Assembly (NCBI GenBank): GCA_944383705.1
Contig: CALWQR010000001.1
Coordinates: 18,718-82,717, forward strand
Length of the DNA stretch: 64,000 bases
DNA from: an uncultured Clostridia bacterium
Lineage (GTDB): Bacteria; Bacillota; Clostridia; Oscillospirales; CAG-272
Reading direction: 5' to 3'
Shown: in pieces, positions 405-44,142 of the stretch
Layout of the letters: each line of letters starts with the position of its first letter
How positions within the stretch are numbered: position 1 is the stretch's first letter
Notes under the pieces: generated by a model
Told to the model about the DNA's origin: nothing
What the model saw: only the letters and a program-made list of their open reading frames with translations
Databases searched by the model: none
Made by a program: the position numbers and the translations under genes

Positions 405-433
405 GATGGTTGTCTCCTTTCCGTGATTGCGGA

Positions 434-2614
434 TCATTGTGCCGCGCTACGGGCGCGCCGTCCGAACAGGACCAGGGCGGCCCCGGCAAGCAGCAGGACA
501 AAGAACAGGGGTGCGCCGGCAGCGGACTGGCAGCCCTCCTCGGGCTCCTGCGGGGCCGTGCCGGAGTCGGTGCCTGTGGGCTGCTCGGCCGGGCCGGTCT
601 CCTCGCCGGTATCGGTGTCGGACGGGGTTTCCACCTCACGGGCGTCCCACTCGGCCCAGGATTCGGCCAGGAAGGCCTCGTATACCGGCATCACCAGCTT
701 CATGCCGTCCAGATTGAGGTGGCTGATGTCGTCCGCATGCAGGCAGTACTCTGCGCGGAAGGCCTCGTCCCGCATATCCACACCCGAGACCTCGGGGTCA
801 TAGGCGCGGAAGCAGTACACGCCCCATTTCTCGCAGACCTGCTCGGCCGCCTGGGCGTAATCGAGATAGGTCAGCGTGGTGCCCGTGTTGGTGTCCGGGA
901 AGTTCCACACCGTGGTGTACATCAGCATGGCGTTGGGGTATTTTTCGCGCAGGCCGGCAAACAGCGTGTTCAGCGCGCCCATAAAGGTGTTGGTATCCTC
1001 GCTGTCCACCGTGCCCAGGGGCACATTGTTGTTGTAATCGTTGCGACCGCCGTTGACCATGATGACGTCCGCGTCATTGGAGGGCATCATGCGGTAGCGC
1101 TTGCACATGGGCTGATTGTCCAGGTTGTTGTAGGAGGACACCAGGTTGCCGTTGGAGCCGAAGTTGGTAAACACCCAGTTGTATTTGGTGGCAAGCAGGG
1201 CCGGCCACACCTGCTCCTGCGGCAGGGTCTGTCCCGCAAAATAGCTGTCGCCGATGATGTTGACCTTCAGGCCCTCCAGCGCTTCCTCGTTCACCTGGGT
1301 TTTGTCAAAGGCAATCCACATATTCAGGTCCAGGTTCTGCGCCAGAGCCAGGGGCACCAGCGCCCGGGAGGCGTCGTAGCCCTCGGCAGGGGTCAGGCCC
1401 TCCTCACTGCCGGCCTTTTTCTCAAAGAAGCCGACCGCACCGTTCAGGGGCGCCTCAAACAGCCCTTCCATCACGGCGTCGGGATACGCGACGCGGATCT
1501 CCACGCCGATGGTCTCGCTGCCGGCGGCCACACAGACCTCGCTGCCGTCAAACAGCGCGTCCCCGGCGGCGTACTCCCCTTCCCCGTAGCGGATGGCGGT
1601 GAGTGCCTCTGCGCCGCTTTTGGTCAGGTCAATCTCAAAGGCAGCGTATTTGTCCTTGTCAAGGCTCTGGGGGTCGTCTCCGTTCAGCGCCAGCTGCACG
1701 GTCAGCGTCTCGCTGCCGGTGGGCTGACAAGAGATGAAGAAGTAGAGATTTTTGCCGTCCGAGCTGATCCACACCCGGCTGGGGGCGGCAGGGGAGGTGC
1801 CGTCGGTATACTCCTCCATCAGCAGGTAGGGCAGGCTGCGCCAGCCCTCATCCTCACCCATGACGCCGTCAACCGTCAGGGTTGCGCCGGTGACGTCCAT
1901 CACCGACGGGAGCGAGGTGGCCTCGCGCGCCTCAAAGCTCAGCGGGGTGTTGGCCTTGTCCCAGTCAAAGCCCTCGCTGGCGGTATAGGTATCGCTGAGC
2001 GATACCCCCAGCCGCACGGTTCCGGCCTCGATGCCGGCCTGCAGCTCCTCGGTCAGGGGAATTTTCATCTCGAAGAATTCCAGCCCGTTGACGCCCGAGC
2101 CGAACCAGCCGGTCTTCTGCCAGAGCTCGTGCTCGGGCGCCCCGCTGGCGTACATGGTGTAGAACTCGCAGTACACATCCAGCTGCTGGGAGGAGCCGGG
2201 CACCATGCCGGCCGAGCGGCCATTGGTGGAGAGATTGGTGTAAAAGCAGGAGCAGAACCACTGGCCAAGGGTCTTTTCGTTTTTGCCGTCAAAGGACAGC
2301 AGCACGCGCATGACCGTGGTCTCGATCAGGGAATGCACAAAGAGGTAGAGATACTCGGTGTCGTAGCTGGCGTACACCTCGCCGGCCAGGGTCGGCTCGG
2401 CGCTGCCGGTCCAGACGGTATCCAGCAGCATGTAGGGCGTCCCGGCCCAGCCCTCGTCGGCGCCCATGACCCCGTCGATGGTGACGGGCGAGCCGGCGAC
2501 GTCTTTGACCAGAGGCAGCTCGGCGGTCTCTTCCCCCTGGGCGGCCAGAGCCGGCAGGGCCAGGGCAGAGAGAACCAGCAGCAGTGCAAGAACAAGCGAT
2601 AAACTCTTTTTCAT
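434..2614 (-). CDS. Secreted, C-terminally membrane-anchored SGNH/GDSL hydrolase with two N-terminal CBM9/DOMON-like repeats
   Basis: Signal peptide MKKSLSLVLALLLVLSALALPALA. Internal duplication (VTIDGVMGADEGWAGTPYMLLD / LTVDGVMGEDEGWRSLPYLLME). SGNH blocks IIGDSYFAG, VNGGRNDYN and DDISH. C-terminal hydrophobic tail PLFFVLLLAGAALVLFGRRAR. GGAG RBS upstream of the ATG. Confidence 0.75.
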   Translation of the reverse strand: MKKSLSLVLALLLVLSALALPALAAQGEETAELPLVKDVAGSPVTIDGVMGADEGWAGTPYMLLDTVWTGSAEPTLAGEVYASYDTEYLYLFVHSLIETTVMRVLLSFDGKNEKTLGQWFCSCFYTNLSTNGRSAGMVPGSSQQLDVYCEFYTMYASGAPEHELWQKTGWFGSGVNGLEFFEMKIPLTEELQAGIEAGTVRLGVSLSDTYTASEGFDWDKANTPLSFEAREATSLPSVMDVTGATLTVDGVMGEDEGWRSLPYLLMEEYTDGTSPAAPSRVWISSDGKNLYFFISCQPTGSETLTVQLALNGDDPQSLDKDKYAAFEIDLTKSGAEALTAIRYGEGEYAAGDALFDGSEVCVAAGSETIGVEIRVAYPDAVMEGLFEAPLNGAVGFFEKKAGSEEGLTPAEGYDASRALVPLALAQNLDLNMWIAFDKTQVNEEALEGLKVNIIGDSYFAGQTLPQEQVWPALLATKYNWVFTNFGSNGNLVSSYNNLDNQPMCKRYRMMPSNDADVIMVNGGRNDYNNNVPLGTVDSEDTNTFMGALNTLFAGLREKYPNAMLMYTTVWNFPDTNTGTTLTYLDYAQAAEQVCEKWGVYCFRAYDPEVSGVDMRDEAFRAEYCLHADDISHLNLDGMKLVMPVYEAFLAESWAEWDAREVETPSDTDTGEETGPAEQPTGTDSGTAPQEPEEGCQSAAGAPLFFVLLLAGAALVLFGRRARSAAQ

Positions 2615-2687
2615 TGTTTGAAATCTCCTTTTCAGAATTCAAGAGCATATACGGGCAGACTTGCAGATACGAACGGGTGAAAACGGG

Positions 2688-3713
2688 TTATGTATAGGTA
2701 CCGGTCTGAATCTTGCGGATGAACTCTTCCAGCAAGGTCTCCATCCGGTCGGCCGACGGGCCGAACTGCGACCACTCCTTTCCGTCCCGCAGGTAGGCGC
2801 CGGTATCGTCACAATAGCCGCCGAACTCGCGGGTGTAGATCCGGCCGAAGTCGAAGGCCTCGGTCCGGCGGATCAGCTCCAGCATCTCTGTCATTTCGGG
2901 GCTGGCGCTGGTCTGGTACTGCATGATGCGGCCGAAGACCACCGGGGTGGTGACGCGGTAGCCCGCGCTGGCCAGCGCCTCCAGCACCGCGGTGTTCATC
3001 TCCAGCCGGCCGGCGGGAACCGCGGCCGGAATGCCGAACAGGGAGATGGGCTGCCGCACCGTGCTGTAGTACTGGGTCTGCGCGCTGTCGTACTTCGGTA
3101 CCGGCACACAGCCGTACTCAAAGCTCACGTCCCGCAGATGCGTGGTGGCAATGCCGTGGTGGGCAATCAGCATCAGAGCCTGCTCCGATACAAAGCATCC
3201 GGCCGGGTTGCTGTCCTCCACAAGGGCATGGTCCACCTGCACAAAGTCGGTGAGCTGATCCATCACATCCAATCCCTTCTCACCGTAGGATTCGGGATTG
3301 ACCGTCAGGCTGCCGGTCTCGTCGCGGACGACCCACGGGATATCGCAGCCGTGAAACACGGCCGGCCAATCCCAGTAGGCGCCCACCGTCGGAATCAGGT
3401 CTCCGGCGTCCACCACCTGATTGCGGTTCTCGTCGCTGTAAAAGCCTTTGCCCAGGGCAATCATCCGCTCCAGCGTCCATTCGTCGGCCTCCACCAGGCT
3501 GTACGGGCTCTCCAGCCCATAGTCCTCGAACAGGTCGGCGTTGAAGTATATGCAGTACACCATCTGAATGAAGCTGGGGGAGACGTCGCCGGTCACCGAG
3601 GAGGACGCAGAGCCCTCCCCGGCCCCTTCCCCGCTCTCCCGGCAGGAGAGCAGCAGGGCGGACAGAAGCACCAGCACCGACAGCAGCAGGGACAGCCTTT
3701 GCGTTGCTTTCAT
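2688..3713 (-). CDS. Truncated paralog of a family-1 solute-binding lipoprotein; C-terminal two thirds only, with its own signal peptide
   Basis: Lipoprotein signal LLSALLLSC. From SPSFIQMVYCIYFNADLFEDYGLESPY to the ...FIRKIQTGTYT end it is collinear with 3749..5239. It lacks about 175 aa of the N-terminal lobe. Confidence 0.65.
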   Translation of the reverse strand: MKATQRLSLLLSVLVLLSALLLSCRESGEGAGEGSASSSVTGDVSPSFIQMVYCIYFNADLFEDYGLESPYSLVEADEWTLERMIALGKGFYSDENRNQVVDAGDLIPTVGAYWDWPAVFHGCDIPWVVRDETGSLTVNPESYGEKGLDVMDQLTDFVQVDHALVEDSNPAGCFVSEQALMLIAHHGIATTHLRDVSFEYGCVPVPKYDSAQTQYYSTVRQPISLFGIPAAVPAGRLEMNTAVLEALASAGYRVTTPVVFGRIMQYQTSASPEMTEMLELIRRTEAFDFGRIYTREFGGYCDDTGAYLRDGKEWSQFGPSADRMETLLEEFIRKIQTGTYT

Positions 3714-3748
3714 ATTGCACCCCTTCCTGCGTCGTCGTGTTTTCCGTT

Positions 3749-5239
3749 TTACTGATAGGTACCGGTCTGAATCTTGCGGATGAATTCGTCCAGCAGGGTC
3801 TGCATCTGCTCGGCCTGCGGGCGGAACTCGGTCCAGGGGCGGTTGTCCCGGATGAAGGCGCCGGGCTCGTCGCAGTAGCTGCCCAGATCGCGGGTGTAAA
3901 TGCGGCCGAAATCAAAGATCTGCGTCTCGCGGACCAGGGCCAGCATCTCGGTCATCTCGGGGCTGGCGCTGGTCTGGTACTGCATAATCTTGTCAAAAAC
4001 CACCGGCGTGGTGGTGCGGTAGCCCGCGCTGGCCAGCGCCTCCATCACTGCGGTATCCATTGCCAGCCGGTCGGCAGGCACCGCGCTCGGAATGCCGAAC
4101 ATCGAGATGGGCTGGCGCACCGTGCTGTAGTACTGGCTCTGGGTGCTGTCATATTTGGGCGTGGGCACGCAGCCGTACTCAAAGCTCACCTCGCGGAAAT
4201 TCCGGGAGGCCGTGCCGTGGTGGGCAATCAGCATCAGCGAATTGCCGGCCACAAAGTTCTCGGTGACGCCGTCCCCCACAAACGCGGAGTCCACCTGGAC
4301 AAAATTCAGCAGCTTCTCCATCACGTCCAGGCCCTTTTCCCCGTAGCATTCGGGGTTGACGGTCAGCGTGCCGGTTTCGTCCCGCACAATCCAGGGCACG
4401 TCGCAGCCATGCAGCAGCGCGGGCCAATCCCAGTAGGCGCCCACCATCGGAATCACGTCGGCCGCATCCACCTCCTGGTTGTGGTTCTCATCCTGGTAAA
4501 AGCCCTTGCCCAGGGCAATCATCCGTTCCAGCGTCCATTCGTTGGAAGCCACCAGATCGTAGGGGCTCTCCAGCCCGTAATCCTCGAACAGGTCGGCATT
4601 GAAGTAAATGCAGTACACCATCTGGATGAACAGCGGGGAGATGTCGCCGGTGCACAGGTAAAAGGTATCGCCGATGCTGGTCTCCTCAATCAGGCTCTGG
4701 TTCCACCAGGGCATCTCAAAATCCAGGTAGCTGCCGTCGATGTCGCCCAGGTCCCGGTAGAGCCCGGCAGCCGCGCAAATGGCCGCGGTGCGGGTGTAGG
4801 CGCCGACAAAGTCGAAATAATCGCCCCCGCTGACCACATTCTGCAGGCTTTGCATGAAGTTGTTTTCCTGACTGTTGGAGCCAATAATCACGGTGTACTT
4901 CAGGGTTACGCCCAGCCGATCCTGCACGCTTTCGTCCCGGGTGAAAATCGAGAGGTCGATTTCGTCGGCCGAGCTGCCGTCCGCGCCGAATTCCTGAATG
5001 CCCTCGGTGTCGGTGTTCCAGCCCAGCACCAGAATGTCCTCGTCATAGTTGAGATCTGCCGGCAGGTGATCCTTGAGATAACCGTTGGCATCGTAGTCGC
5101 CATTTCCGGAGTCTCCGGTGGTAGCGGTCGTATCCTGGGGGGTCGTGGGTTCGGGATCCCGCTTACAGGACAGAAGGACCGACGCCGACAGCGCCAGGAC
5201 CAGCATCAGCAGCAGGACGCGGATGAACAGGTGTTTCAT
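3749..5239 (-). CDS. Extracellular solute-binding lipoprotein (large family-1 / LplA-like ABC substrate-binding protein)
   Basis: Signal plus lipobox MKHLFIRVLLLMLVLALSASVLLSC. About 500 aa, the size typical of sugar SBPs. Paralogous to 2688..3713 and to the C-terminal half of 11498..14212. Confidence 0.75.
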   Translation of the reverse strand: MKHLFIRVLLLMLVLALSASVLLSCKRDPEPTTPQDTTATTGDSGNGDYDANGYLKDHLPADLNYDEDILVLGWNTDTEGIQEFGADGSSADEIDLSIFTRDESVQDRLGVTLKYTVIIGSNSQENNFMQSLQNVVSGGDYFDFVGAYTRTAAICAAAGLYRDLGDIDGSYLDFEMPWWNQSLIEETSIGDTFYLCTGDISPLFIQMVYCIYFNADLFEDYGLESPYDLVASNEWTLERMIALGKGFYQDENHNQEVDAADVIPMVGAYWDWPALLHGCDVPWIVRDETGTLTVNPECYGEKGLDVMEKLLNFVQVDSAFVGDGVTENFVAGNSLMLIAHHGTASRNFREVSFEYGCVPTPKYDSTQSQYYSTVRQPISMFGIPSAVPADRLAMDTAVMEALASAGYRTTTPVVFDKIMQYQTSASPEMTEMLALVRETQIFDFGRIYTRDLGSYCDEPGAFIRDNRPWTEFRPQAEQMQTLLDEFIRKIQTGTYQ

Positions 5240-7275: not shown

Positions 7276-7321
7276 AAAAAGCAGGCCCGGCCGGGGAGAT
7301 GACCTCCCCGGCCGGGCCTGC
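7276..7321 (-). terminator. Rho-independent terminator of the XRE-S24 gene
   Basis: Perfect 18-bp stem GCAGGCCCGGCCGGGGAG / CTCCCCGGCCGGGCCTGC (7281-7321). It is followed on the minus strand by TTTTT (7280-7276). Confidence 0.75.
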
Positions 7322-8336: not shown

Positions 8337-8669
8337 ATGAACAGAACGGACGTCAGGAACGGCAATTTTGATTCCGGATTCGGAACCGGCATTGGGCGGA
8401 TATACCCGGGCGCCGGCCTGCCGGAGCGCGGCCGGCCCGGCCGCGGGCAGGCTCTGCGGAGCCGTGCGGCAGCCATCCGGCGGGCCCTGTGCGGCGGGGC
8501 CGTCCGGCGGCTGGCCAGAGCCGGCGGCGTGGTGCTGGCTCTGCTCGGCATGATCGGAGCCGCGGGCGCGATGGAAAGAGGCACGCTGCCGCTGGGCGCC
8601 GGACTGCTGATTTGCGCGGCCCTGCTGGGAGTGGAGTTCCTCTGCCTGCGCACCCGAAAGCCGGAGTAA
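8337..8669 (+). CDS. Hypothetical small membrane protein (Arg/Gly-rich N-terminus, two C-terminal hydrophobic segments)
   Basis: ATG preceded by AAGAGG at 6 nt and by the consensus promoter. Hydrophobic stretches VVLALLGMIGAAGA and GAGLLICAALLGVEFLCL. No recognisable family. Confidence 0.45.
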   Translation: MNRTDVRNGNFDSGFGTGIGRIYPGAGLPERGRPGRGQALRSRAAAIRRALCGGAVRRLARAGGVVLALLGMIGAAGAMERGTLPLGAGLLICAALLGVEFLCLRTRKPE

Positions 8670-8699: not shown

Positions 8700-9080
8700 T
8701 TCCCGCCCCACTGCCCCGCGCGGTTGATGTGGGGCTTTCTGCCCGTTGTCCTGTGCAGTTGATGGGGGAATCCCGCCCCATTCTACCGCGCGGCCGATGG
8801 AGGATGCCTGCCCGTTGTCCCGTGCAGTTAATGGGGGAATCCCGCCCCATTCTACCGCGCAGCCGATGGGGGATTCCTGCCTGTTGTCCCGTGCAGTTGA
8901 TGGGGGAATCCCGCCCCATTCTACCGTGCAGCCAATGGGGATTCCTGCCTGTTGTTCCGCACGACCGATGGAGGATTCCCGCCTGTTACCCCACATAGTT
9001 GACCGAGGGATTCCCTGCCTGTTGTCCTACGTGGTTGACTGGAGGAAATCTCCGCCTGTTGTTTTGCGCGGTTGAGAACT
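8700..9080. repeat. Degenerate tandem repeat array: 69-bp period built from two ~34-35-bp half-units, about 11 half-units in total
   Basis: CTGCC(C/T)GTTGTCC starts recur at 8739, 8808, 8877 and 8945. Half-unit consensus is about CYGCCYNTTGTNCCGYGCRGYYGATGGRGGAWTC. Three near-identical full units are followed by decaying half-units out to about 9075. Confidence 0.85.
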
Positions 9081-9263: not shown

Positions 9264-9312
9264 ATACAAAAGCCCGCCCCGGATGCGCTTTGCACATCCG
9301 GGGCGGGGCTGC
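9264..9312 (-). terminator. Palindromic repeat copy 1; rho-independent terminator of gene 9373..11433
   Basis: CCCGCCCCGGATGCGC-TTT-GCACATCCGGGGCGGGG. On the minus strand the single mismatch becomes a G-U pair and the stem is followed by CTTTTG. The same ~40-bp core recurs at 18707-18746. Confidence 0.75.
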
Positions 9313-9372
9313 TGTATGTGTCTGCCGGGCAGGAGGCAGCCGATCAGATTTTTTCTCCGGGGGGGGCTCCGT

Positions 9373-11433
9373 CTACTCCAGTTCGATGGTCACCTCACCG
9401 TCCTTGGCCACATACAGGAACCGGATGATTCCCTGCTCCTGAAGCTGAAGGATGACTTTGGATGTAGGATAACCGGTAACGGTATCCCAGCGGGACTGCT
9501 CCACCGGCCACAGGGCAATCTCCGGCAGTACAGCATTGTAAATTTCCACCGAGCCGCCGTTCCAGCCGTGGTGCGCCACCTGAAGGATATCGCTTTTCAG
9601 CTCACTGCCATATAGACCGTATATGACCTTGACCCCGCTGTCGCGCGCAGCCACAGTACTGACATCGGCCAGAAACAGGATGCGCTGACCGGCAATATTG
9701 ACACGGAACACCGTGGAGGTATCGTTCATATCGGTCAGAACATACGGGTGAAGGGTCTCATGCGTGTACAGAATTTCGACCTCTGCATTGCGGACCCAGA
9801 AACGCTGTCCGGCATGAACCTTGTACACACTGACATCGGAATACTTTGCAAAAGAAGAGAGCATCGCACTGTAATACGAACCGATTCCCTCAAATTCGCA
9901 TGGATCTGCAAAGTTCCAGTAAACCGCCTCCAACGTAACCATGCCTGCATATCTGACCGTAAAATCCAGGTAATTGGTCACATGGTCATAGTGCTCATGC
10001 GTGAACAGCCAACCTGCAATGACAATCTGCCCGTCCGCGCGTTTGTTGTGCGCCCGAAGATAGTTATACAGAACGGTTTCATCTTCTCCGGCACTGCCGC
10101 CGCCATCGATGATGAAAAAGCTCCCATCCTCCAGAGTGAAAATGTACCCCATACCGAAATTGCCGGCCTCATCATCCAGACTGAGTTGCCCCAGCGTACT
10201 GGCAGTGATTGCTTCGGTTTCGGTATAGGAAGCGGCAGGCAACGCAGCCGCGGTTTCCGATGTCACCCGCAAGCTGCCGTCCCATGGAAAATAGCTGACA
10301 GATACCGCTCGGTTTTCCTGTGTATATACGGCAAACAGATTATTGCCGATGCGATTGGTCTGATATTCGGAAAATCCGGCGTCTTTGAGCCGGCCGAGAT
10401 AAGCTTCAAAGTCCGAAGCAACCGCGCCGGTGTAAACGGCGGTCAGCGTATCGTTCAGCCCACGGTAGGCCGAGGATAGTGTCAGCGCCGGCTCCGGCAG
10501 ATTCTCAAAATCCGGGCGTATGCTCCCCTGCTCCGATGCAAAAGCCGGAATGCTGATCTCTCCCCCGGATTGGTTTCTTTCCAGAATATCCAGAAAAGCC
10601 TCTACCGCCTGCCCGATGCCCGCCAGCGACCAGGCGTTGAGGATAATCCGATTACCGGAGCAGGCCACAACATAGCCGTCCGGCGGTACTCCCTCGAGAG
10701 CCGCAGCGGACTCGGGACGGTTGGTGTGCCCCAGCAGGATCTCACAGGCCTGTGGGTCGGTCGCGTCGGTAAAGGTATCCAGATCTACGGAAGGCGCCGC
10801 GCCGGAATATTCCCGGATGCTTTCCCGCAGCTGCATTCCCAAATCAATGGTATAATCCGATGAATTGGTCTGCCGGATGATGGTATAATCGGTTTTCCCG
10901 TTGGCTGCCAGCGTCAGCAGGCGGTACGGATCGCTGAACACCGGAGCGTTCAACTGTACCGTTGGCGTAGCGCTGCCCTGCAGCAAATGTTCGACAAAAT
11001 AGGCAACGGCATCGGACAGAAAGCCGTCCCGTGTGGCGGCAATCACCACCTTGTGCTCGGTGAAGCTGATGGCATACCCCTCCCCGATGATTTGTGAGAG
11101 CAGGTCCGCGCTCTCGGCGCGGTTGGTGTTGCCAATCAGGATTTCTCTGGCGGTCGGATCATACTCCCCCTCCCGGTACCAGTCATCGCTGACCTCCGGC
11201 GTCACGCCGATACCGATCAGTGCGCTGCGCAGCTCAGCTACGGCTGCCAGGCAATCCTGCGAGGTGCTCTCGGGCCGAACAATGCAATACTCCGATAAAT
11301 TCACCGTAGCCATCAAAGCATCCCCGGGGTTCTCCCGGTCCGATTGACAGGACGGCAGCAAAGCCCCCAGTATCAACAGCAGCGCCAGCAGTCCAAAGAC
11401 CGGATGAAGACGTTGTTTGCGCTTCAATTGCAT
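9373..11433 (-). CDS. Lipoprotein with duplicated N-terminal module and a C-terminal ComEC/Rec2-type MBL-fold metallo-hydrolase domain
   Basis: True start MQLKRKQRLHPVFGLLALLLILGALLPSC (ATG 11433; a TTG 6 nt downstream is also possible). Two related ~110-aa modules (..EILIGNTNRAES.. / ..EILLGHTNRPES..). MBL motifs FTHEHYDHV and LQVAHHGWNGGS. Confidence 0.75.
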   Translation of the reverse strand: MQLKRKQRLHPVFGLLALLLILGALLPSCQSDRENPGDALMATVNLSEYCIVRPESTSQDCLAAVAELRSALIGIGVTPEVSDDWYREGEYDPTAREILIGNTNRAESADLLSQIIGEGYAISFTEHKVVIAATRDGFLSDAVAYFVEHLLQGSATPTVQLNAPVFSDPYRLLTLAANGKTDYTIIRQTNSSDYTIDLGMQLRESIREYSGAAPSVDLDTFTDATDPQACEILLGHTNRPESAAALEGVPPDGYVVACSGNRIILNAWSLAGIGQAVEAFLDILERNQSGGEISIPAFASEQGSIRPDFENLPEPALTLSSAYRGLNDTLTAVYTGAVASDFEAYLGRLKDAGFSEYQTNRIGNNLFAVYTQENRAVSVSYFPWDGSLRVTSETAAALPAASYTETEAITASTLGQLSLDDEAGNFGMGYIFTLEDGSFFIIDGGGSAGEDETVLYNYLRAHNKRADGQIVIAGWLFTHEHYDHVTNYLDFTVRYAGMVTLEAVYWNFADPCEFEGIGSYYSAMLSSFAKYSDVSVYKVHAGQRFWVRNAEVEILYTHETLHPYVLTDMNDTSTVFRVNIAGQRILFLADVSTVAARDSGVKVIYGLYGSELKSDILQVAHHGWNGGSVEIYNAVLPEIALWPVEQSRWDTVTGYPTSKVILQLQEQGIIRFLYVAKDGEVTIELE

Positions 11434-11497
11434 CCTCCTTCCATAGTCCCGCGGGCAAAAGCCCGCGGGAAAGAACCAAGCAAGCGACGTTGGCCTG

Positions 11498-14212
11498 TTA
11501 TTGCTTTTGCTGGTCAAAATCGGCCAGCAAATCATCGAGCTTTTCTTCAATGGTGCCGCCAAACACCCGATAAATGCTGCCGAGATTAGCCGAAGCCGCC
11601 TGATTGTATCCGGCCAGCATATTGCGGATCTTGTGCAGCGGGTCCTCAATGGAAGCCCCGTACAGTGAGCCGAAATCGTACGCGATGGAATCGATAATCA
11701 TATCAAACAGTTCACCTGTGATGTCAGAGCTGGCGTAACGGACCTTGTAGGCCAGTTCATGATAGACCGGGCGTACATCCCGATAGGAGTACTCGGACAT
11801 CACCTCCAGCGTAGCAGTTGCCAATCCGAGATCTGCGCCGATGTTATAGGGCATAGAAACAATGCTGTAGGCATCCTGCGGCGTGGTGGCATAGCCTTCC
11901 TGCCCGGAGTTCAGCTTGGGCAGAGGAAGAATGCCATAGTGCAACGTGACATCGGTGGCAAATGTCTTTGCCGATTCCAACAGACCGAATTCCAGCATAC
12001 AACGACCGTTATAAAACACCTCATCCGAAAAATAGTTTGTAGTGGTGCCATAATACTCGTCGTTGGCTGTAGTACCGCGGTACAAGCCATCGCTTTGATA
12101 TATGAAGTCAAACAGCTCGGAAAAGGCATTGGTATACTGCGGCTCCTGAAAAGCCACCTGAATGTTGCCGTCCGCGGTCTTTTCCACCAGCGGAATCCCT
12201 ACCGCCATCAACATCGCATCAACGCACATCGACCCATTGTTGAATACCATCCCGTACAGGTCGCCCCCGCTTTGCTCACCATCGCGGTCAACATCATCGT
12301 ACACATCGTGAATCAGCTCCTGCACATATTCCAGGGTCCAGTTTCCATCCCGCACCACGGCGTACAGATCGCTCAATCCGTTGGTATAATCGGGATGATA
12401 GTCACCAAACAGGTCCTCGTTGAAAAAGGTCACAACCGAACGGTCGGTTGCCGTCAGCGTCACATCCCCCACAATAAAGTACAGCAGACCGTTGTAGCTG
12501 CACTCCTGTACAAAGGACTGATTGTACCAGGGCAGCTCGGTGGAAATATAATTGGCGGAATCGACGGTATTGAGATTGTAATAGAGGTTTTCGGCCGCCA
12601 ATGCCGAGCCGTAATAAGCATAGGTGGTGATGATATCGTAATACGGGCCGCCCATAATGGAGGTGCGCACGGTATTGAGGTACTCGGTAGATGCGTTGGT
12701 GCTGTTGGAGACAAAGTCCAGAGTCACACCCAGGCGGGCCTGCACGTTCTCGTTTCTTTCAAACACCTCATTGTCAATCAGGGCACCCGAGTATTCGGCG
12801 TCAAATTCCTCCTTGAAGTCTTCCCGGATCAGGATACTGACCGTTTCTCCGGGAAACATCAGGTCATCCGGAACCTTGGATTCCGGCATGGGCTCACCAC
12901 TCTCCGCGGACGTCTGCGCAGGAGAGGTCGGGCCCCCCTGCCCGCTGTCGCCTCCGCTGTTCCGGACCGCTGCCGAAATACCGACAATACACCCGACAAG
13001 AATCGCCAAAGCCAGCACACCGGCCACAATTCGGACCACCAGTTTGCCAATGCGCACAATGACCACAACGGCCGCGGCCACGGCAGCAATCATGACAATT
13101 GCCAGCACCACAATCAGAACCGTGTTGGGCTTTTGCGGCTCGGCGGGCGTCTCCCCGTTGCCGGAGAGTTCCCCGGTAGGGGTCGGCGGCACTGTGGTGA
13201 CCTCATCGGAGGGCTCCTCGGTCGGCTGCGGCCCCTCTCCCGTATCCGCATCCGTCTCCTCACCGGAGGGATCGTCCCCGCCGGGATCATCCGGCTGCAG
13301 TGTGGAGGGGATGCTCATGTCATATTCCGGAACGTTCCCTTCTGCGTCGGCCAGCGCCAGCACCGGATAACCGCCAAAATCGGAATTGCCCTGGGAGAGA
13401 GCAAAATTTTTGTAAGCATCCGTGTAATTGTAAAAATACATCTTGCCGTTTTCCAGATAATTTCCAATGGAAATGCGGAAGCTCATCTGGTACCCGGCCT
13501 CGGGTGCAAATACCGGATATCGCTCCTGAATGCAGCTCCAAGGAATGGCTATCTCCATCTGCCAGCCATCGTCGGTCAGCGCTGCGGCGCATTGCACACC
13601 CTCGGGCAGGTCCACATAGCTTTTGGCCGAGAGAGTGGGGTAGGTCATGCGCAGCTGAATCGCGCCGTTTGGCTGAGCCCCGTCATCGGCCAGCGTGGTA
13701 TAAAACTGCCAGATGTCCCCGTCCGCCTCACTCAGACAGAGAGATTCCAGCGGCTGAATGCCAAAAATGGCGCCTTCTGCTTTGGACCACGGCAGTGCGG
13801 CAGAGGTGCCGCCGGGGGTGGCAGGCGATTCGTAATAAACAAAATCGTCCACCCGGCTGTCCAGAATATACAACGCGTTTTCGTCCCACAGGAAACGGAG
13901 CGTTGCCTTGTTTCCCTCAGGCCATGCCTTGGTCTCATCGGTGCAAAGTCCGCCGTATTCGGTCAGAACTGCCTGCAGCTCGGGGTCGGCAGGGTCATAG
14001 ACCAGCACAGAGGCGTTCTGCCATTCTTCATCGGTTACGCTACCGTCAACGGTCGGAGCGGTCTCGGTATACACCGCGGTCCACTGAACATCGGTCAGCC
14101 AATAATCCTCAATTGTAGGGGACGCTTCCTCTGCCGATACCGGCAGAAGCGCCAGCGCGGTCAGCAGAACCGCAAGCAGCAGGGTCAGACAGCTTGATTT
14201 TCTATGTTTCAT
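11498..14212 (-). CDS. Surface protein: signal peptide, CBM9-like domain, acidic/Pro-rich linker, two hydrophobic helices, then a solute-binding-protein domain
   Basis: MKHRKSSCLTLLLAVLLTALALLPVSA. CBM9-like APTVDGSVTDEEWQNAS..ATLRFLWDENALYILD. VLIVVLAIVMIAAVAAAVVVIV-RIGKLVVR-IVAGVLALAILVGC. The C-terminal half aligns with SBP 3749..5239 (NENVQARLGVTLDF, ELPWYNQSF, FFNEDLFGDY). Confidence 0.8.
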   Translation of the reverse strand: MKHRKSSCLTLLLAVLLTALALLPVSAEEASPTIEDYWLTDVQWTAVYTETAPTVDGSVTDEEWQNASVLVYDPADPELQAVLTEYGGLCTDETKAWPEGNKATLRFLWDENALYILDSRVDDFVYYESPATPGGTSAALPWSKAEGAIFGIQPLESLCLSEADGDIWQFYTTLADDGAQPNGAIQLRMTYPTLSAKSYVDLPEGVQCAAALTDDGWQMEIAIPWSCIQERYPVFAPEAGYQMSFRISIGNYLENGKMYFYNYTDAYKNFALSQGNSDFGGYPVLALADAEGNVPEYDMSIPSTLQPDDPGGDDPSGEETDADTGEGPQPTEEPSDEVTTVPPTPTGELSGNGETPAEPQKPNTVLIVVLAIVMIAAVAAAVVVIVRIGKLVVRIVAGVLALAILVGCIVGISAAVRNSGGDSGQGGPTSPAQTSAESGEPMPESKVPDDLMFPGETVSILIREDFKEEFDAEYSGALIDNEVFERNENVQARLGVTLDFVSNSTNASTEYLNTVRTSIMGGPYYDIITTYAYYGSALAAENLYYNLNTVDSANYISTELPWYNQSFVQECSYNGLLYFIVGDVTLTATDRSVVTFFNEDLFGDYHPDYTNGLSDLYAVVRDGNWTLEYVQELIHDVYDDVDRDGEQSGGDLYGMVFNNGSMCVDAMLMAVGIPLVEKTADGNIQVAFQEPQYTNAFSELFDFIYQSDGLYRGTTANDEYYGTTTNYFSDEVFYNGRCMLEFGLLESAKTFATDVTLHYGILPLPKLNSGQEGYATTPQDAYSIVSMPYNIGADLGLATATLEVMSEYSYRDVRPVYHELAYKVRYASSDITGELFDMIIDSIAYDFGSLYGASIEDPLHKIRNMLAGYNQAASANLGSIYRVFGGTIEEKLDDLLADFDQQKQ

Positions 14213-14245
14213 GATTCATCCTTTCCCAGGCTATGCCTGTGTTCA

Positions 14246-15427
14246 TCAGAGTTCAACCGAAATGTCATCCTCCCAGGCGATGTGAAACCGTCTCTTTTGC
14301 GCAGTCATTTCCTGTACCATCACCTGTGTGGCAGGAAAGCTCTGGATGCGCTCCCAGTCCCGCTTCCGCAGCGGCCACAGCACATCCGGCGCGTTCACAA
14401 ACGGATAAAATGCAAGTGCCTCGGTATCCCAGCCATGGTGCGCAGCCTGATACCAGTCGCTTTTGAGATAGTCGCCATAACGCCCGGCCAACATACGGCA
14501 AGCCTTGCCGCAGCTCAGGTCGGCCGGAAAAAAGAGTTTTTTGCCCCGGACGGTAACCAATGTCACCATGGAGCAGTCGTTCATAGCGAGCGGGCCGTGC
14601 GGATAAAGATCCTCGTGTGTGTACAGTATTTCCACACTGGCCGTCCCCACGGTAAAGCGCTGCCCTGTGTGCGGTTTGTAAACCGCCGCTTGCGGCAGAT
14701 GCGTATGCAGCTCGTTGAGCCATAGCCCGCGGGCGGTGGCCAGACTGCCGATTTCCCGATACTGAATCGGAACCGAAAGTGATGGAAAATTGTACAGCAG
14801 ACAGCGCACATCGGTCATGCCGCCGTATTTTTTTGCAAACTGTACGGGGCCGGATACATGATCCCAATGCGGATGGGTCAGGATCCAGGCATCCACCACC
14901 GGCCGCTCACCGGGCGGCGTATCCCGGCAGAGGCACTGCCATAGCCGATCGTGATCGTTGCCGGCGTCCCCGTTGCCGTCGTAAATCAGGAAATGGCCCT
15001 GACCGAGTGAAAACACATAGCACATGCCGAAGTTTGCCGCCGTATCATCCGGACAGACCTGTGTCAGGGTGACTCCTGCGGATTCGGTCGGAGCATCTCC
15101 CAATCGCTCCGGCATGGGCCCCCCCTGGCAGTAAAGCACCCGCAGGGAGTGCTCCGAGGGAAAGCAGCCAAGGACGGTATAAACCTCCTTGCCGTCCTGC
15201 CAGGACGAAAAGCAGCAAAAGAGATTTCCGGCAGCCGAGCGCTCCCACAGCAGTTCTCCACCGGCAAGCAGCTCCTGTCGCAGCTGTCCGTATTCGGTCG
15301 GGCCGCCAGGCAGTACGGTTGCAAATACACCGTCGCCGCAGTCGTATACCGGTCGTTCCCGCAAGCGCGAGAGCTGCCGCACCGTGGCCAGCAGACGGCG
15401 ATATCCATTGATTGCATTGCGTTGCAT
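14246..15427 (-). CDS. ComEC/Rec2-type MBL-fold metallo-hydrolase (no signal peptide seen), paralog of the C-terminal half of 9373..11433
   Basis: Motifs ILTHPHWDHVSG and YQAAHHGWDTEA, plus shared blocks ANFGMCYVF / GNFGMGYIF and VEILYTHE in both. The start is ambiguous: ATG 15427 (MQRNAING) or TTG 15511. Confidence 0.75.
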   Translation of the reverse strand: MQRNAINGYRRLLATVRQLSRLRERPVYDCGDGVFATVLPGGPTEYGQLRQELLAGGELLWERSAAGNLFCCFSSWQDGKEVYTVLGCFPSEHSLRVLYCQGGPMPERLGDAPTESAGVTLTQVCPDDTAANFGMCYVFSLGQGHFLIYDGNGDAGNDHDRLWQCLCRDTPPGERPVVDAWILTHPHWDHVSGPVQFAKKYGGMTDVRCLLYNFPSLSVPIQYREIGSLATARGLWLNELHTHLPQAAVYKPHTGQRFTVGTASVEILYTHEDLYPHGPLAMNDCSMVTLVTVRGKKLFFPADLSCGKACRMLAGRYGDYLKSDWYQAAHHGWDTEALAFYPFVNAPDVLWPLRKRDWERIQSFPATQVMVQEMTAQKRRFHIAWEDDISVEL

Positions 15428-15519
15428 AGCCAAGCCTTTCTGTATCCGATAAAATTTCCGATAATACCGGACGGAACGCAGGGCAGCCGCCCCGTCCGGC
15501 AGAGCAATCAAAGCCTGAA

Positions 15520-15648
15520 TCAGGTAAACTCCTGTCCGCCAAGATCAAATTCCAGTCCGGAGCCCCCCTTCGTGACACTGATGGTCAGCAAATCGGAATC
15601 CGGCAGAAATTCCAGTTTCAATTCGGGCTGAAAATATATGTTTTTCAT
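15520..15648 (-). CDS. Candidate 42-aa small protein
   Basis: My translation: MKNIYFQPELKLEFLPDSDLLTISVTKGGSGLEFDLGGQEFT. ATG 15648 is preceded by GGAGGG at 6 nt. TGA stop at 15522..15520. It fills the gap between two operon genes. Below the ORF-track length cutoff. Confidence 0.4.
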   Translation of the reverse strand: MKNIYFQPELKLEFLPDSDLLTISVTKGGSGLEFDLGGQEFT

Positions 15649-15660
15649 CGCTTTCCCTCC

Positions 15661-18333
15661 TTATTCCACAAGAACACCGTCCGTAACCGTCAGACAACAG
15701 CCACTATCCAGACATTCATTGCCGGCAGCATCTGCCAGAAAGGCCCGAAGATAGATGCGGTAGGTGCCATCGGCCGGAATATTTGTCACAGTCAGCGCGC
15801 AGAGATAATCGGCTCCCAGCTGCTGGGCCGTTACGGACTCCATTCCTCTATCTGTATCTGCCAGAAGCGAGGTGTACACCGTGCTTCCGGCAATCCGCCC
15901 GGATACGGCCTTGCCGTCCTCGCGCACCACACGAAGATAAAATCCGACCTCGGTATACTCCTCCAGCGTTTTCCCTCCCAGGTCAACGGTACTGACCACG
16001 CGCAGCCGGGTACTGTCGCCGGCCGGAGCCGTAGGTTCCTGCACAAAAGCGGTTTCCGCCAGGGTTGGACGGAGCATCTCCGCCACACCGGCGGGAACTG
16101 CCAAACCTTCTGTCATGGTCCAGCCGATCAATGCCGGCAAATCCATCAGTTCGGTGGTTTCGGTCAAAGACCGGATCAACGAAGAGTGATTGGTTGTTGT
16201 GGAGGTATTGCTGTCCATTGCAGCCGAGCCGGTCTGCACTCCGTCATAGGTGACCGTAAGCGCGTAGTAGTTGTGCCAGGCGATCAGAGCATTGGCATTG
16301 GTCCCGGTGAGATAGTAAGTATCGGCAATCGATATTCTGGCCTGCTCGGTGCGGCTGTTGCATTCCAGATAGACCAGCGATCCCGAAAACCCATCCGTAC
16401 TGGGCACTGTGCGGGCATTGTAACAGCGGTTGAGGGTCAGATGCCCGCGGTTGAGCCCGACCAGTCCGCCATTGTGATTGGAAGTAGCCAGAATCTCCCC
16501 GTAATTGGCACAGTCTGAAAGTGTCAGTTCGGAAGAAGGGCTGTTTTCATCTGTTGCAAGGCTGTTGACGTTCCCGACGATTCCGCCAACCCCTGCCGAG
16601 CCCGAGACGGTACCATTGAATACCACGCTCTGCATTTCTGCCACGCCATAATAACAGCCGCCCAGAATACCACCGATGCAGTCGATTGCTGTGCCGTCGG
16701 TTTTTCTTCCTTCCACAATGGCCTCACTGTAGAGATTGCGGAACAACGACGGCTCCTCCCCACTGACCGAGCTGGCAATGCTGCCGATATAGTTCTTGGA
16801 AGTGGACAGAATGTAGGAATTGGTCATCCGGAAATTCTGAACGGTTGCCCCTACCAGTTTGACCAGCAATGCTGAACCGGAGCTTTCCTGATTGACGTAC
16901 ACGCCCGAGAGCGTGTAGCCGTCCCCGTCCAGTACGCCGCGAAATTCAACAATCGGAACCCACACACGCGCCGGGGCGGATTTGGTGGCCGCGTCCCATC
17001 CCGGATTGAGATCCACATCGCCGTTCATTCGCACAGTCAAGCCTTCATAATAGCCATAAGCGGCCGCATACGCGGCAAAATCGAACCAGTCATCGGCATC
17101 GGAAAGGTGAATGACGCCCGCGCCATCCTGCTCCAGCGGCAGAACCAGCTGTTCCATACCGGGCTTAGTAGCCAGCACGGGGAGTGTGGTCACTGTCTGA
17201 ATCACCCCCTTGGCATTGTCCCATGTTGTGGTTTTGTCGGCAAATGTCAAACGATCGGTCTCGCCTCCGGTATAGGACACCGTGACGTCAAAGCGGTTCC
17301 GCGATCCATGCAGGCCAATGCCGTGCTTCAGAACTGCCGCATCCGAGGTATAACAATCTGTGAACCGCACGGCAGCAACGGTTGTGGGGGTATTGGTTTC
17401 GGAATTGTTCTTTGTAATGGTCTTCCGATCCAAATAGGCAAGTCCTCCGCTCCACTGATTGTTTCCGGTGGAAATGGCCCCAAGGTTGGCACAGGCAATC
17501 AACTCGGCATCCGCGGCAATACGGCCGATCATCCCTCCCGCCTCGGTGCCAACGCTGTCTCCGCGCTGAGTCCGAACTGTGCCGTAATTGACGCAGCGCC
17601 GCAGGGTTGCCTTGTACTCGTTGCTGGTGCCGAGAATGCCTCCCACCATCACGCCGCCGCTCACCGTTCCGGAAAAGCTACAGTCGGTAAACTCGGCGTC
17701 TGCCCCGTATAATACGCCGCAGATTCCCCCAGCCACCTGCGAATATCCGGTTTCCGGAGTTTCGGTTTCAATCACAACATTGCTGTGTATATTCTCAAAC
17801 ACACACCGGTTATTGCTGACCGATGCCATCACACCGCCGCTGTAATCACCCGCGGACCAGATGTAACTGTTTTCGATACGCAAATCACGTATGATGCAGC
17901 CGTCCCCGCGCCAGATAAAGCCCTGGTTGCCTGCTCCGTTGAGATACAGACCGGAGATTGTGTAGCCCTGCCCGTCAAAGGTTCCCTTAAAGCGACTGAC
18001 CGGCGTCCAGACCCGCCCCCCGGCGGGCGCTGTCCTGGTAGCCGCATCCCAGCCGGGATTGAGATTCACGTTGCACATCAAGCGCACGGTCTGACTGTTG
18101 AAGCAGTCCAACCCGTTTGAGTCATCGGCACAGGCTGCGGCAAACGCAAACAGGTCATCGACCGAATCGATTTCCCATACCCCATCGCCGTTCGGGTCGC
18201 CCCATTCCTCTGCCGACAGGTCCGGAACGGGCAGAGCCGAGAGTGGCAGCACCCCCATGCTGCCGATGAGTATGGCCACCAGCAGAACGATTGCCAACAG
18301 CCGGACGGAACATTGGTTTTGGTGTGTCTTCAT
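15661..18333 (-). CDS. Secreted GLUG-motif / beta-helix repeat surface protein with an internal duplication
   Basis: Signal peptide VRLLAIVLLVAILIGSMGVLPLSA. Two ~400-aa repeats each carry NLNPGWDAAT..F(K/R)G(T/V)(F/L)DG(Q/D)GYT(I/L)SG(L/V)Y(L/V)N followed by GGI.G-type turns. C-terminal Ig-like domain. Confidence 0.75.
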   Translation of the reverse strand: MKTHQNQCSVRLLAIVLLVAILIGSMGVLPLSALPVPDLSAEEWGDPNGDGVWEIDSVDDLFAFAAACADDSNGLDCFNSQTVRLMCNVNLNPGWDAATRTAPAGGRVWTPVSRFKGTFDGQGYTISGLYLNGAGNQGFIWRGDGCIIRDLRIENSYIWSAGDYSGGVMASVSNNRCVFENIHSNVVIETETPETGYSQVAGGICGVLYGADAEFTDCSFSGTVSGGVMVGGILGTSNEYKATLRRCVNYGTVRTQRGDSVGTEAGGMIGRIAADAELIACANLGAISTGNNQWSGGLAYLDRKTITKNNSETNTPTTVAAVRFTDCYTSDAAVLKHGIGLHGSRNRFDVTVSYTGGETDRLTFADKTTTWDNAKGVIQTVTTLPVLATKPGMEQLVLPLEQDGAGVIHLSDADDWFDFAAYAAAYGYYEGLTVRMNGDVDLNPGWDAATKSAPARVWVPIVEFRGVLDGDGYTLSGVYVNQESSGSALLVKLVGATVQNFRMTNSYILSTSKNYIGSIASSVSGEEPSLFRNLYSEAIVEGRKTDGTAIDCIGGILGGCYYGVAEMQSVVFNGTVSGSAGVGGIVGNVNSLATDENSPSSELTLSDCANYGEILATSNHNGGLVGLNRGHLTLNRCYNARTVPSTDGFSGSLVYLECNSRTEQARISIADTYYLTGTNANALIAWHNYYALTVTYDGVQTGSAAMDSNTSTTTNHSSLIRSLTETTELMDLPALIGWTMTEGLAVPAGVAEMLRPTLAETAFVQEPTAPAGDSTRLRVVSTVDLGGKTLEEYTEVGFYLRVVREDGKAVSGRIAGSTVYTSLLADTDRGMESVTAQQLGADYLCALTVTNIPADGTYRIYLRAFLADAAGNECLDSGCCLTVTDGVLVE

Positions 18334-18417
18334 CCTTTCAATTCCCTTTCTGTCAGATATTTGACTGGCTACGGAACAGAAGCCGCAACCGGCAAACCAC
18401 TCCGCGCCGCCAGTTTT

Positions 18418-18446
18418 ATTATATACAATTGCCCGTTAAATGTAAA
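18418..18446 (-). promoter_or_regulatory. Promoter (TTTACA-17-TATAAT) of the 18333->9373 operon, inside an AT-rich region
   Basis: Minus-strand TTTACA at 18446-18441 and TATAAT at 18423-18418, with a 17-nt spacer. It sits about 85 nt upstream of the ATG at 18333. Confidence 0.55.
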
Positions 18447-18702
18447 TCCCTCCATGTCACCTATATGCACGATTATGTAAATTTGAATTTTTTTGTTTTT
18501 CTGTTTTGCATAAATCACGATTCCATATTTTAAGCATATAAAACAAATCAAAAATAAAATTCGACGGCACATTTAAGCAATCAGAGAACAAAAAAGAAAA
18601 GTAAAGCAGCAACCATGAAAAAGCAAAATGTTTATGTAATGTATATGTAAAGTCACAGCAATTGTATATCAGACAACCGGAGCCGGTCATGCGTCATGCA
18701 GA

Positions 18703-18748
18703 ACAGCCCCGCCCCGGATGCGCTTTGCACATCCGGGGCGGGGCTGTA
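18703..18748 (-). terminator. Palindromic repeat copy 2; probable terminator of the thioesterase gene / T-box operon
   Basis: CCCCGCCCCGGATGCGCTTTGCACATCCGGGGCGGGGCTG has the same core and orientation as 9273-9311. It lies 120 nt downstream of the stop at 18867. The minus-strand T-tract is weak (CTGTTCTG). Confidence 0.6.
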
Positions 18749-25133: not shown

Positions 25134-25445
25134 TGGTAAAATCTCCTTTTGTTCAGAGCCGCAGAGAATACAAAAAATCCCCTGCGCAGATTCGCAGAGG
25201 ACGATGGGAACACCGCGGTACCACCTCTGTTGCCGGGGACACCCCCGGCCACTCGGATAGCGGACAGACAACTGCCGCGTCTGTGCTGTAACGGGCATAC
25301 CCGGCGCAGCCTACAGGGGCCACCGCCCGTTCGGTGCGCAACTCGCGGAATGTATTCGGAACGCCACTGCCACTGCCTCGCACCGCCCGGCAGCTCTCTG
25401 CGCGCCCGGGACGCCCCTACTTGTTTCCGGTCAGCATCTTTCTTT
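25134..25445 (-). promoter_or_regulatory. T-box riboswitch leader with candidate specifier codon UAC (Tyr)
   Basis: Minus-strand elements in canonical order:
- K-turn UGA..CGAG.
- Specifier-loop 5' side AGUA (25421-25418).
- AG bay AGAGAG (25399-25394).
- Distal hairpin CUGCC-GGGCGGUGCGA-GGCAG.
- Specifier-loop 3' side GAA-UAC-A (25357-25351), flanked by helices GGGGCG/CGUUCC and CGGAA/UUCCG.
- F-box CCGUUA (25294-25289).
- Stem III GCCGGGG-GUGU-CCCCGGC.
- T-box GGUGGUACCGCG (25225-25214).
- Antiterminator AGAGG[UGGUACC]GCGGUG..CAUCGU CCUCU.
- Competing terminator CCUCUGCG..GCGCAGGGG plus U6 (25200-25172). Confidence 0.85.
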
Positions 25446-37268: not shown

Positions 37269-37277
37269 TGAAGAACT

Positions 37278-44131: not shown

Positions 44132-44142
44132 ACTCCTCCGTT

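Follow-up and report, generated by a model that had tools for sequence, protein, structure and literature searches.

Several kinds of described system come close to the locus presented here, a block of ~9.4 kb lying between two copies of one palindrome in a 64,000-nt stretch of DNA (hereafter the window) from an uncultured Clostridia bacterium of the CAG-272 lineage (GenBank assembly GCA_944383705.1, contig CALWQR010000001.1, positions 18,718 to 82,717 of the forward strand). Intrinsic terminators comprise a stable GC-rich hairpin shortly 3' of a stop codon, followed by a U-rich tract. Genomic islands and cis-mobilizable elements (CIMEs) are of foreign composition, sporadic between species and bordered on both sides by direct repeats, and CIMEs contain no recombinase. 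Integron cassettes are promoterless units of ~1 kb whose attC sites are palindromic but imperfect, share one orientation and mark the 3' ends of transcription units. Gram-positive polysaccharide-utilisation loci group lipoproteins resembling solute-binding proteins (SBPs), carbohydrate-binding modules (CBMs) and extracellular hydrolases, together with an AraC regulator. Two metallo-beta-lactamase (MBL) enzymes are also relevant to the proteins of the block: the MBL domain of ComEC is a metal-dependent nuclease (PMC8579336, PMC12455585), and Pce (CbpE) is a teichoic-acid phosphorylcholine esterase (titles of PDB 2bib and 1wra). We read the locus as a genomic islet of some age, now fixed, that integrated at a terminator hairpin; its gene module is undescribed yet recurrent. 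The block is probably a horizontally acquired accessory operon, fixed in the species, with the palindromes being two copies of one intrinsic-terminator hairpin and not the active ends of a mobile element. Its five genes are called G1 to G5 in the order of transcription, and the palindromes copy U (beyond the G1 end) and copy D (beyond the G5 end); coordinates are collected in Table 1.

The 39-mer CCCGCCCCGGATGCGCTTTGCACATCCGGGGCGGGGCTG was found at exactly two forward-strand sites in the window, 9273-9311 and 18708-18746, in agreement with the near-identical, same-orientation repeats that the initial annotation had placed at both borders. No further copy was found in the window with up to 3 mismatches allowed, and 100 shuffles, searched with the same tolerance, predict no chance occurrence. 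An extra C at 18707 extends the stem of copy U to 20 bp. Similarity between the copies covers ~50 nt with a 3-nt indel (ATACAG[CAG]CCCC...GGGG[G]CT in gene orientation); past this repeat the flanks resemble each other no more than shuffled sequence does, the similarity ending within ~6 nt of the stem. Minus-strand RNA folding gave −47.6 kcal/mol (z −7.9) for copy D and −50.4 kcal/mol (z −8.5) for copy U. Both copies have a C.A mismatch on the forward strand, which corresponds to a G.U pair in RNA from the minus strand and only there. Copy D is followed by the U-tract CUUUUGUAU and was the top-ranked match of the terminator scan. It was kept in every same-species contig reaching that site, one variant regaining the extra G.

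Both copies resemble intrinsic terminators in their GC-rich stem of 16-20 bp, 3-nt loop, position shortly 3' of a stop codon on the coding strand and G.U pair confined to the sense RNA, and copy D also in its U-tract. They differ in that one ~45-nt sequence is used twice, 9.4 kb apart, and in that copy U has a stable hairpin after a stop codon but no U-rich tract. From sequence, we read both as putative intrinsic terminators, copy U serving the ior/paaK/thioesterase operon and copy D the block. A 19-bp perfect GC-rich hairpin was also seen at 7281-7321, between convergent LexA-like (S24/HTH) and AraC genes, where it is probably a bidirectional terminator; very long terminator stems therefore appear typical of this genome.

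Ten long GC-rich hairpins were counted in the window, and the eight others each have a different sequence. A relaxed form of the palindrome was sought in GTDB species genomes, JGI metagenomes and IMG/VR, scans outside which the source species lies. Only unrelated perfect palindromes were returned (Bradyrhizobium, Corynebacterium and environmental contigs), so the palindrome is not a widespread repeat or element. Since only two of the ten long hairpins share a sequence, and since the palindrome is missing from the other collections, the bracketing is not the coincidence of a generic terminator. The initial annotation had raised that coincidence as an alternative; it fails for other genomes, metagenomes and viral contigs, while within the source species the count covers ~70 kb.

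A related idea is that the palindrome belongs to a dispersed, genome-specific family at operon ends, similar to repetitive extragenic palindromic (REP) elements, with the bracketing due to a pile-up in intergenic 3' regions or to insertions being attracted there. Like REP elements, the palindrome is extragenic, imperfect, GC-rich and placed at the 3' ends of genes; only ~70 kb of the genome was examined, and the species was outside the genome and metagenome scans. Such a family would nevertheless have to be reconciled with two copies only in 64 kb plus flanks, eight other long hairpins of different sequence, flank similarity gone ~6 nt from the stem and copies that coincide with both compositional borders, for which we estimate a chance of ~1 in 300 given ~25 operon ends. 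We consider this origin quite unlikely. Integron attC sites were rejected, as the palindrome lacks the core motifs: no R''/R' sites (RYYYAAC / GTTRRRY) were found in or beside it by direct reading, and no intI in the gene tables. The block, a 9.4-kb unit of five genes with its own promoter, is also unlike a promoterless cassette. Sites of the dif and serine-recombinase att types were set aside from general knowledge of the appearance of such sites.

The borders marked by the palindromes are also borders of composition. GC content is 55.5% in the block (9312-18707) and 63.0% in the remaining window. GC content at third codon positions (GC3) is 0.65 in G5, 0.655 in G4, 0.66 in G3, 0.65 in G1 and 0.56 in G2, and 0.81 ± 0.05 in the 33 other window genes. 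This drop of ~3 standard deviations is abrupt and falls exactly between both palindromes. Around copy U, the intergenic DNA on the thioesterase side has 72% GC, against 36% in the 370-nt promoter region on the block side. The composition shift was first proposed from five hand counts of G+C per 60 nt (30, 32, 23, 42 and 43). These counts proved exact. Among the 33 other genes, neighbouring native ones for secreted SBP-like and GDSL proteins have a GC3 of 0.83-0.85, and secretion therefore does not account for the dip. Outside the block, the lowest GC3 among long genes (0.58) was that of a 493-aa Rce1-like CAAX protease (52758-54239), which may be another foreign gene.

A different origin for the dip would be vertical inheritance, with GC3 lowered by low expression or relaxed selection and the terminators arising by local duplication or gene conversion. 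The fixation of the block in the species is compatible with this, as are ratios of nonsynonymous to synonymous differences (N:S) above those of housekeeping genes and the presence of related native genes 2-9 kb away (SBP-like paralogues, endonuclease/exonuclease/phosphatase (EEP) enzymes and a G2-like 50-aa peptide). However, those native relatives have a GC3 of 0.78-0.85, the GC3 step is sharp and falls at the repeats, the nearest species lacks the block at this locus, and the module has native composition in lineages of ~57% GC. Vertical inheritance is accordingly judged very unlikely.

The operon upstream of copy U, on the minus strand, is conserved (AMP-ligase/iorA/iorB/paaK/ACT/4HBT thioesterase). 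It was found in four other species (L038-L042), where it is followed by unrelated genes and the block is absent; the alternative that the block is syntenic and universal in relatives, entertained alongside the original proposal, thus does not hold. In this comparison the nearest species has a thioesterase 79% identical, further homologues are 63-66% identical, and no very close sister species was available. A response regulator gene lies 40 nt after the stop codon in the species with the 79%-identical thioesterase, without a hairpin. No single-palindrome site was found downstream of the thioesterase homologues at 79% or 63-66% identity, where other genes are located.

The full five-gene order was recovered in two other Clostridia lineages (L035 and L043), comprising a G1-like protein of ~525 aa, a 42-aa open reading frame (ORF), a 399-aa MBL protein, a ~900-aa protein of G4 type and a ~690-aa lipoprotein with an MBL domain. 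The five families thus do occur together elsewhere, a point left for checking in the initial annotation. Identity of G5 to these copies is 54%. In both lineages the module stands directly behind an AraC regulator gene, yet in differing neighbourhoods, and its composition (GC3 0.60-0.74) matches that of its flanks (0.72-0.75). In L043, the lineage in which this was checked, the module ends at another terminator and no repeat flanks it. Partial versions were found in genomes of 40% and 55% GC, and an AraC-type regulator lies within a few kb in 4 of the 4 relatives with enough flank (L035, L043, L044 and L036). The closest relatives (P0002, P0152; G5 74%, G1 67%, GC3 0.70) are on contigs of ~2.5 kb. 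These data fit transfer from a lineage of ~55-58% GC into a genome of 63% GC.

Contigs of the same species were collected by exact-protein look-ups of both flanking genes in ENA, Logan and one NCBI metagenome-assembled genome. An empty site would read thioesterase-3' untranslated region (UTR) / palindrome / CTTTTGTATGAGG, and a circle junction G5-3'UTR / palindrome / CTGTTCTGCATGACG. The block and the expected palindromes were present in every same-species contig spanning a junction, with no empty site among them at contig level. A contig with a single palindrome and no block, the empty site looked for to support the original proposal, was thus seen neither among these same-species contigs nor at the loci of the relatives examined. 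The exact G2 peptide and the exact thioesterase were found on similar numbers of contigs. The density of single-nucleotide polymorphisms (SNPs) is 9-26 per kb in the block and 6-28 per kb in the flanks, and this equal diversity implies long residence. N:S ratios are 12:11, 12:19, 7:23 and 13:15 for block genes, 5:16 for iorA and 2:16 for paaK. They indicate that the block is under purifying selection, weaker than that on iorA and paaK.

The sole structural variant is a clean deletion of 4111 nt running from the G1 C-terminus into G4, with both palindromes kept. It was seen in L010 and L016 (two samples), approximately at window positions 12100-16220, and removes the G1 C-terminus, G2, G3 and most of G4. 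In single contigs, G3 is split into 87 + 297 aa (L014) and G5 into 343 + 202 aa (L026); these may be pseudogenes or assembly errors at low coverage. The distance from the G5 stop codon to a 110-aa ORF (ORF110; 8337-8669, forward strand) is 633-634, 662 or 701-704 nt across the same-species contigs. Between this ORF and copy D lies a non-coding tandem array (8704-9053) of approximately ten 34/35-nt units, with a 69-nt super-unit at 90% identity and no Rfam match. The varying distance implies that the copy number of the array varies between strains.

These contigs bear on two further explanations. In one, the block is a still-mobile, non-autonomous cassette of CIME type, with the palindromes as attL and attR, which a recombinase from another part of the genome can excise as a 9.4-kb circle with one palindrome. 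Direct repeats of ~39-50 nt exactly at the borders of compositionally foreign DNA, the absence of a recombinase from the block and the differing genomic contexts of the module in other lineages are all as expected of CIMEs. Deviant composition with sharp borders and absence at the locus of relatives are shared with genomic islands more generally. Mobility genes are not: the gene tables list no integrase, transposase or recombinase in the block or in ~10 kb on either side, and no tRNA gene is at a block border, the window tRNAs being solely at 37.9-38.1 kb. Neither an empty site nor a circle was seen, the repeat is a terminator hairpin and not the 3' end of a gene, and the block is fixed and diversified. 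The similar contig numbers for G2 and the thioesterase, an internal deletion keeping both palindromes as the only rearrangement, the long residence and the relative L043 without flanking repeats likewise speak against excision. Comparison of the block with plasmids and phages by blastn gave no match, and the G5 profile found no relative in viral contigs. We hold a mobile cassette to be unlikely. Of the initial annotation, horizontal acquisition stands, on the GC3 step at the palindromes, the absence of the block at the ior locus of other species and the native composition of the module elsewhere. Its suggestion of an excisable or recombining cassette does not, given the lack of a recombinase and of an empty site; excisability is not supported, and nothing indicates present-day mobility.

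In the other, a separate 9.4-kb circular element sharing the 39-mer was threaded into the chromosomal contig as a loop during assembly. The repeat is short, the lower-GC segment lies exactly between its copies, and a Logan contig assembled at k=31 (L003) breaks at both palindromes. Against this, at least 16 assemblies, independent of one another and made with several assemblers in several projects, gave the same structure, the copies can be told apart by a 1-nt indel and by copy-specific flanks on which the assemblies agree, and contigs of the deletion variant keep both junctions. The SPAdes-style assemblies among them presumably used k-mers longer than the 39-nt identity. An artefact was rejected on the independent assemblies, the copy-specific flanks and the deletion variants, and is scarcely credible.

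In the preferred reading, an acquired operon lies between two copies of a terminator hairpin; that the hairpins at the two ends are identical is beyond what chance can account for. When the native left flank of copy U is joined to the native right flank of copy D, a canonical terminator results, namely the hairpin followed by CUUUUGUAU. A rebuilt terminator with its U-tract is the outcome expected if a hairpin-bearing molecule recombined by a single crossover inside the resident ior terminator. Donor DNA from a Clostridia lineage of ~55-58% GC would have brought the module together with one hairpin copy of ~45-50 nt. A single Campbell-type crossover inside the native terminator of the ior operon would then have left one hybrid hairpin copy on each side. 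At present the minus-strand ior/paaK/ACT/thioesterase operon would end at hairpin U, and the block would be transcribed from its own promoter in the 36%-GC leader and end at hairpin D with its U-tract.

Table 1. Positions of the block, its bordering palindromes and its genes in the window, with a native relative of G2 from same-species contigs.
Feature	Position	Strand	Description
Block DNA between palindromes	9312-18707	genes all minus	~9.4 kb
Palindrome copy U	18704..18746	−	20-bp GC-rich hairpin, 120 nt past the stop codon of the 4HBT thioesterase gene
Palindrome copy D + U-tract	9264..9311	−	16-bp hairpin, 62 nt past the G5 stop codon
Promoter/leader of block	18334..18703	−	36% GC; sigma-70-like TTTACA-17-TATAAT (18446-18418); G1 leader and ribosome-binding site (RBS)
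G1	15661..18333	−	890 aa, signal peptide, two GLUG-type beta-helix modules, C-terminal beta-sandwich domains
G2	15520..15648	−	42-aa acidic peptide, no signal peptide, strong AGGAGG RBS
G3	14246..15427	−	393-aa MBL-fold hydrolase, HxHxDH motif, no signal peptide
G4	11498..14212	−	904-aa fusion of CBM9, transmembrane (TM) and SBP parts (CBM9-TM-SBP)
G5	9373..11427	−	684-aa lipoprotein, invariant Cys27, N-terminal GH20b-like domains, MBL domain
50-aa G2-like ORF	L019 20610-20762; L018 20457-20609		native operon left of window; found by hidden Markov model (HMM)

The five minus-strand genes are separated by gaps of 12-92 nt and were called identically in independent assemblies. An Rfam scan of the block and its leader gave no match. 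Domain labels for the block proteins have weak support by sequence and good support by fold. Predicted structures of G5 and G1, one of the checks proposed with the initial annotation, gave fold matches to the ComEC/Pce MBL domains and to GLUG beta-helices, respectively.

The G1 model (AF2) has a pLDDT of 85, and its best Foldseek match was 3n6z (E 1.6e-6, TMt 0.60), with the IgA1-protease entries 7uvk and 6xjb. G1 scores 17 bits with the Pfam Glug family, below the cut-off of 20.5, while its homologues carry PF07581. It shares its fold and the motif F-x-G-x-fDGqGhtIsGL with GLUG surface proteins such as the helix of IgA1 protease and BACOVA_03286 (PDB 3n6z). It differs from them in that no protease domain (M26) was found in it, the module is duplicated, and its gene is always followed by one for a peptide of 42-50 aa. 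Such a G2 homologue was found 3' of a G1-like gene in 6 of the 6 lineages checked, and together with the strong RBS this recurrence shows that the 42-aa ORF is real. The G2 allele in the same-species contig L014 has 6 synonymous and 2 nonsynonymous codon differences. In eleven proteins of 1300-1540 aa, one chain combines a G1-like helix with an MBL domain of G3/G5 type. The G2 HMM found no match in these fusions, and the idea of G2 as a split-off domain was ruled out on that ground. A literature check on the G2 motif found nothing relevant. The native operon adjoining the window on its left has a 50-aa ORF, MKHTYLHPVAELLMLDDAEIRTDLISTSGLSVIENPLGDDDSGNIADLFG, with an Exo_endo_phos (EEP) gene on either side; this ORF matches the G2-family HMM at E 3.5e-19, so the peptide family is not confined to the acquired block.

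G3 and the C-terminal half of G5 are paralogues (34% identity, E 7e-60). No signal peptide was found in any of the three G3 orthologues, and G3 is therefore taken to be cytoplasmic. The all-secreted gene content originally described accordingly does not hold, as G2 and G3 lack a signal peptide in every orthologue. G5 consists of two putative GH20b-like N-terminal domains, one alpha/beta domain and a binuclear MBL domain of ComEC/Pce type, in which H477, H479, D481, H482, D588, H619 and H620 are invariant (45 sequences). Its model (pLDDT 90) matched the ComEC MBL domain 9ic4 best (Foldseek E 2.6e-12, TMt 0.73), with Pce (2bib/1wra) at ~1e-10. GH20, GH84, GH67 and GH115 enzymes were also matched, presumably through the N-terminal domains; the N-terminal 380 aa give a sub-threshold match to the Pfam family Glyco_hydro_20b. 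Sequence matches of G5 to ComEC are weak, and the MBL Pfam scores of G3 and G5 fall just under the cut-offs. With the HxHxDH motif, the distal His/Asp ligands and the fold, both proteins are members of the MBL superfamily, ComEC/Pce clade. They resemble ComEC and Pce in this binuclear site and in their best structural matches, and G5 is extracytoplasmic like both. Identity is only 15-18%, however, and G5 has GH20b-like domains and a lipid anchor in place of the ComEC channel or choline-binding repeats.

G4 begins with a signal peptide and a CBM9-like ectodomain; after a low-complexity linker come TM1, a short loop and TM2, which ends in LVGC, and the protein closes with an SBP-like ectodomain of oligosaccharide type. 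The LVGC at the end of TM2 is lipobox-like, and the TM and lipobox region is kept in L043. The N-terminal half, scanned alone, passed the CBM9_1 (PF06452) cut-off marginally (24.8 bits against 23.4). The C-terminal half is 28% identical (E 2e-41) to a native 485-aa SBP_bac_1-like lipoprotein. Its profile matches the arabino-oligosaccharide binder 6rjy (E 2e-4), and its homology to SBP_bac_1/8 is weak. Relatives of this half are thousands of lipoproteins of ~500 aa that align from the second TM on. Among the 150 best representatives listed, a single further protein (P0271) has the full CBM9-TM-SBP fusion. The gene tables list no ATP-binding cassette (ABC) permease for the G4 SBP in the block or among neighbouring genes.

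Clustering of an SBP-like lipoprotein, a CBM and an extracellular hydrolase, and the AraC gene nearby in relatives, recall Gram-positive polysaccharide-utilisation loci. The block differs from these in having no ABC permease, ATPase or glycoside hydrolase and in that its catalytic domains are phosphodiesterase-like MBLs. Gene and domain annotation also upholds the earlier observation that permease, glycoside hydrolase and regulator are all absent from the block, and no described system was found for the gene combination, as had been stated. PADLOC defence models gave no significant match (stretches below 17 bits, all within the generic MBL motif), an NCBIfam search of the block proteins returned no named family, and a literature check on the gene combination found nothing relevant.

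Folds, fusions and neighbours suggest that the operon would build an apparatus at the cell surface for binding an extracellular glycopolymer and breaking its phosphodiester-type bonds. Binding would be the task of the double GLUG beta-helix of G1, the two ectodomains of G4 (CBM9-like and SBP-like) and the GH20b-like domains of G5. The G5 lipoprotein would cleave the substrate outside the cell at its binuclear MBL site, its cytoplasmic paralogue G3 would process imported fragments, and the acidic G2 would be a dedicated partner of the G1-type protein. Extracellular DNA and sulfate esters may be alternative substrates. In other proteins, the G1-like domain and the G5 N-terminal domains are fused to EEP and GDPD domains, and the latter also to alkaline phosphatase, GH16 or pectate-lyase-like domains. 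A wider proposal is put forward tentatively, as a possibility that we doubt more than we believe. In it, the module is an undescribed, laterally exchanged surface system of uncultured gut Clostridia, which cleaves phosphodiester-linked glycopolymers (teichoic acids, capsules) or extracellular DNA. The invariably linked acidic peptides of 42-50 aa would form a new family that serves either the GLUG-type protein or the MBL/EEP enzymes as a dedicated partner, such as a chaperone or an inhibitor in the cytoplasm, and the terminator hairpin would be a recombination site by which the operon arrived already insulated.

Several points weigh against the reading of the locus as an acquired surface operon between terminators. 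Copy U is followed by the U-poor tail CUGUUCUGCAU; how efficiently it terminates is therefore uncertain, and transcripts of the ior operon may read through it. The palindrome copy number, two, is known for ~70 kb of this genome. That a crossover took place within the hairpin is our inference only, no donor, circular form or empty site having been seen, and the donor lineage cannot be named because the closest relatives are on such short contigs. As to function, the structural neighbours of G5 include an MBL arylsulfatase (8gyg, E 2.6e-7), its best match, ComEC, is a DNA nuclease, and no transporter is encoded in the block.

Other features were noted in the surrounding window. Paralogous repeats 78-82% identical (families D1-D3) occupy 18-4567. 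Within this region, an SBP-like gene (2688-3713) encodes 341 aa in the window, whereas its counterpart in other strains (L017) has 495 aa; paralogues may thus have recombined and deleted part of it. At 36560-37270 and 44135-45200 there are two intergenic segments of low GC that are paralogous to each other. They align directly at their ends (36562-36827 with 44187-44423; 37116-37267 with 45008-45158), and their cores are mutually inverted (36861-37066 with 44910-44696, ~81% identity). The second segment has 150-nt inverted arms (44381-44531 / 44980-45129, 80%). The pair looks like two copies of an invertible, phase-variable switch in opposite orientations, around a 7-kb region with two tRNA genes. 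Two ordinary housekeeping riboregulators were also noted: a T-box leader (25194-25443), which precedes the AMP-ligase/ior operon region, and a glmS ribozyme (47107-47259) upstream of glmS.

The locus presents foreign DNA integrated precisely at a putative intrinsic-terminator hairpin, with duplication of the hairpin. Through this duplication the resident operon and the newcomer each keep a 3' hairpin, and the insertion would be self-insulating. It also brings to light an unannotated module of uncultured gut Clostridia, consisting of a GLUG beta-helix protein, a micro-peptide, two MBL enzymes of ComEC/Pce type and a rare CBM9-TM-SBP fusion. Neither the insertion at a terminator nor the gene module upsets current understanding. 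The domains of the module recur fused to phosphoesterases (EEP, GDPD and alkaline phosphatase), and these recurrent fusions point to an unexplored harvesting of phosphodiester-linked polymers in the gut.

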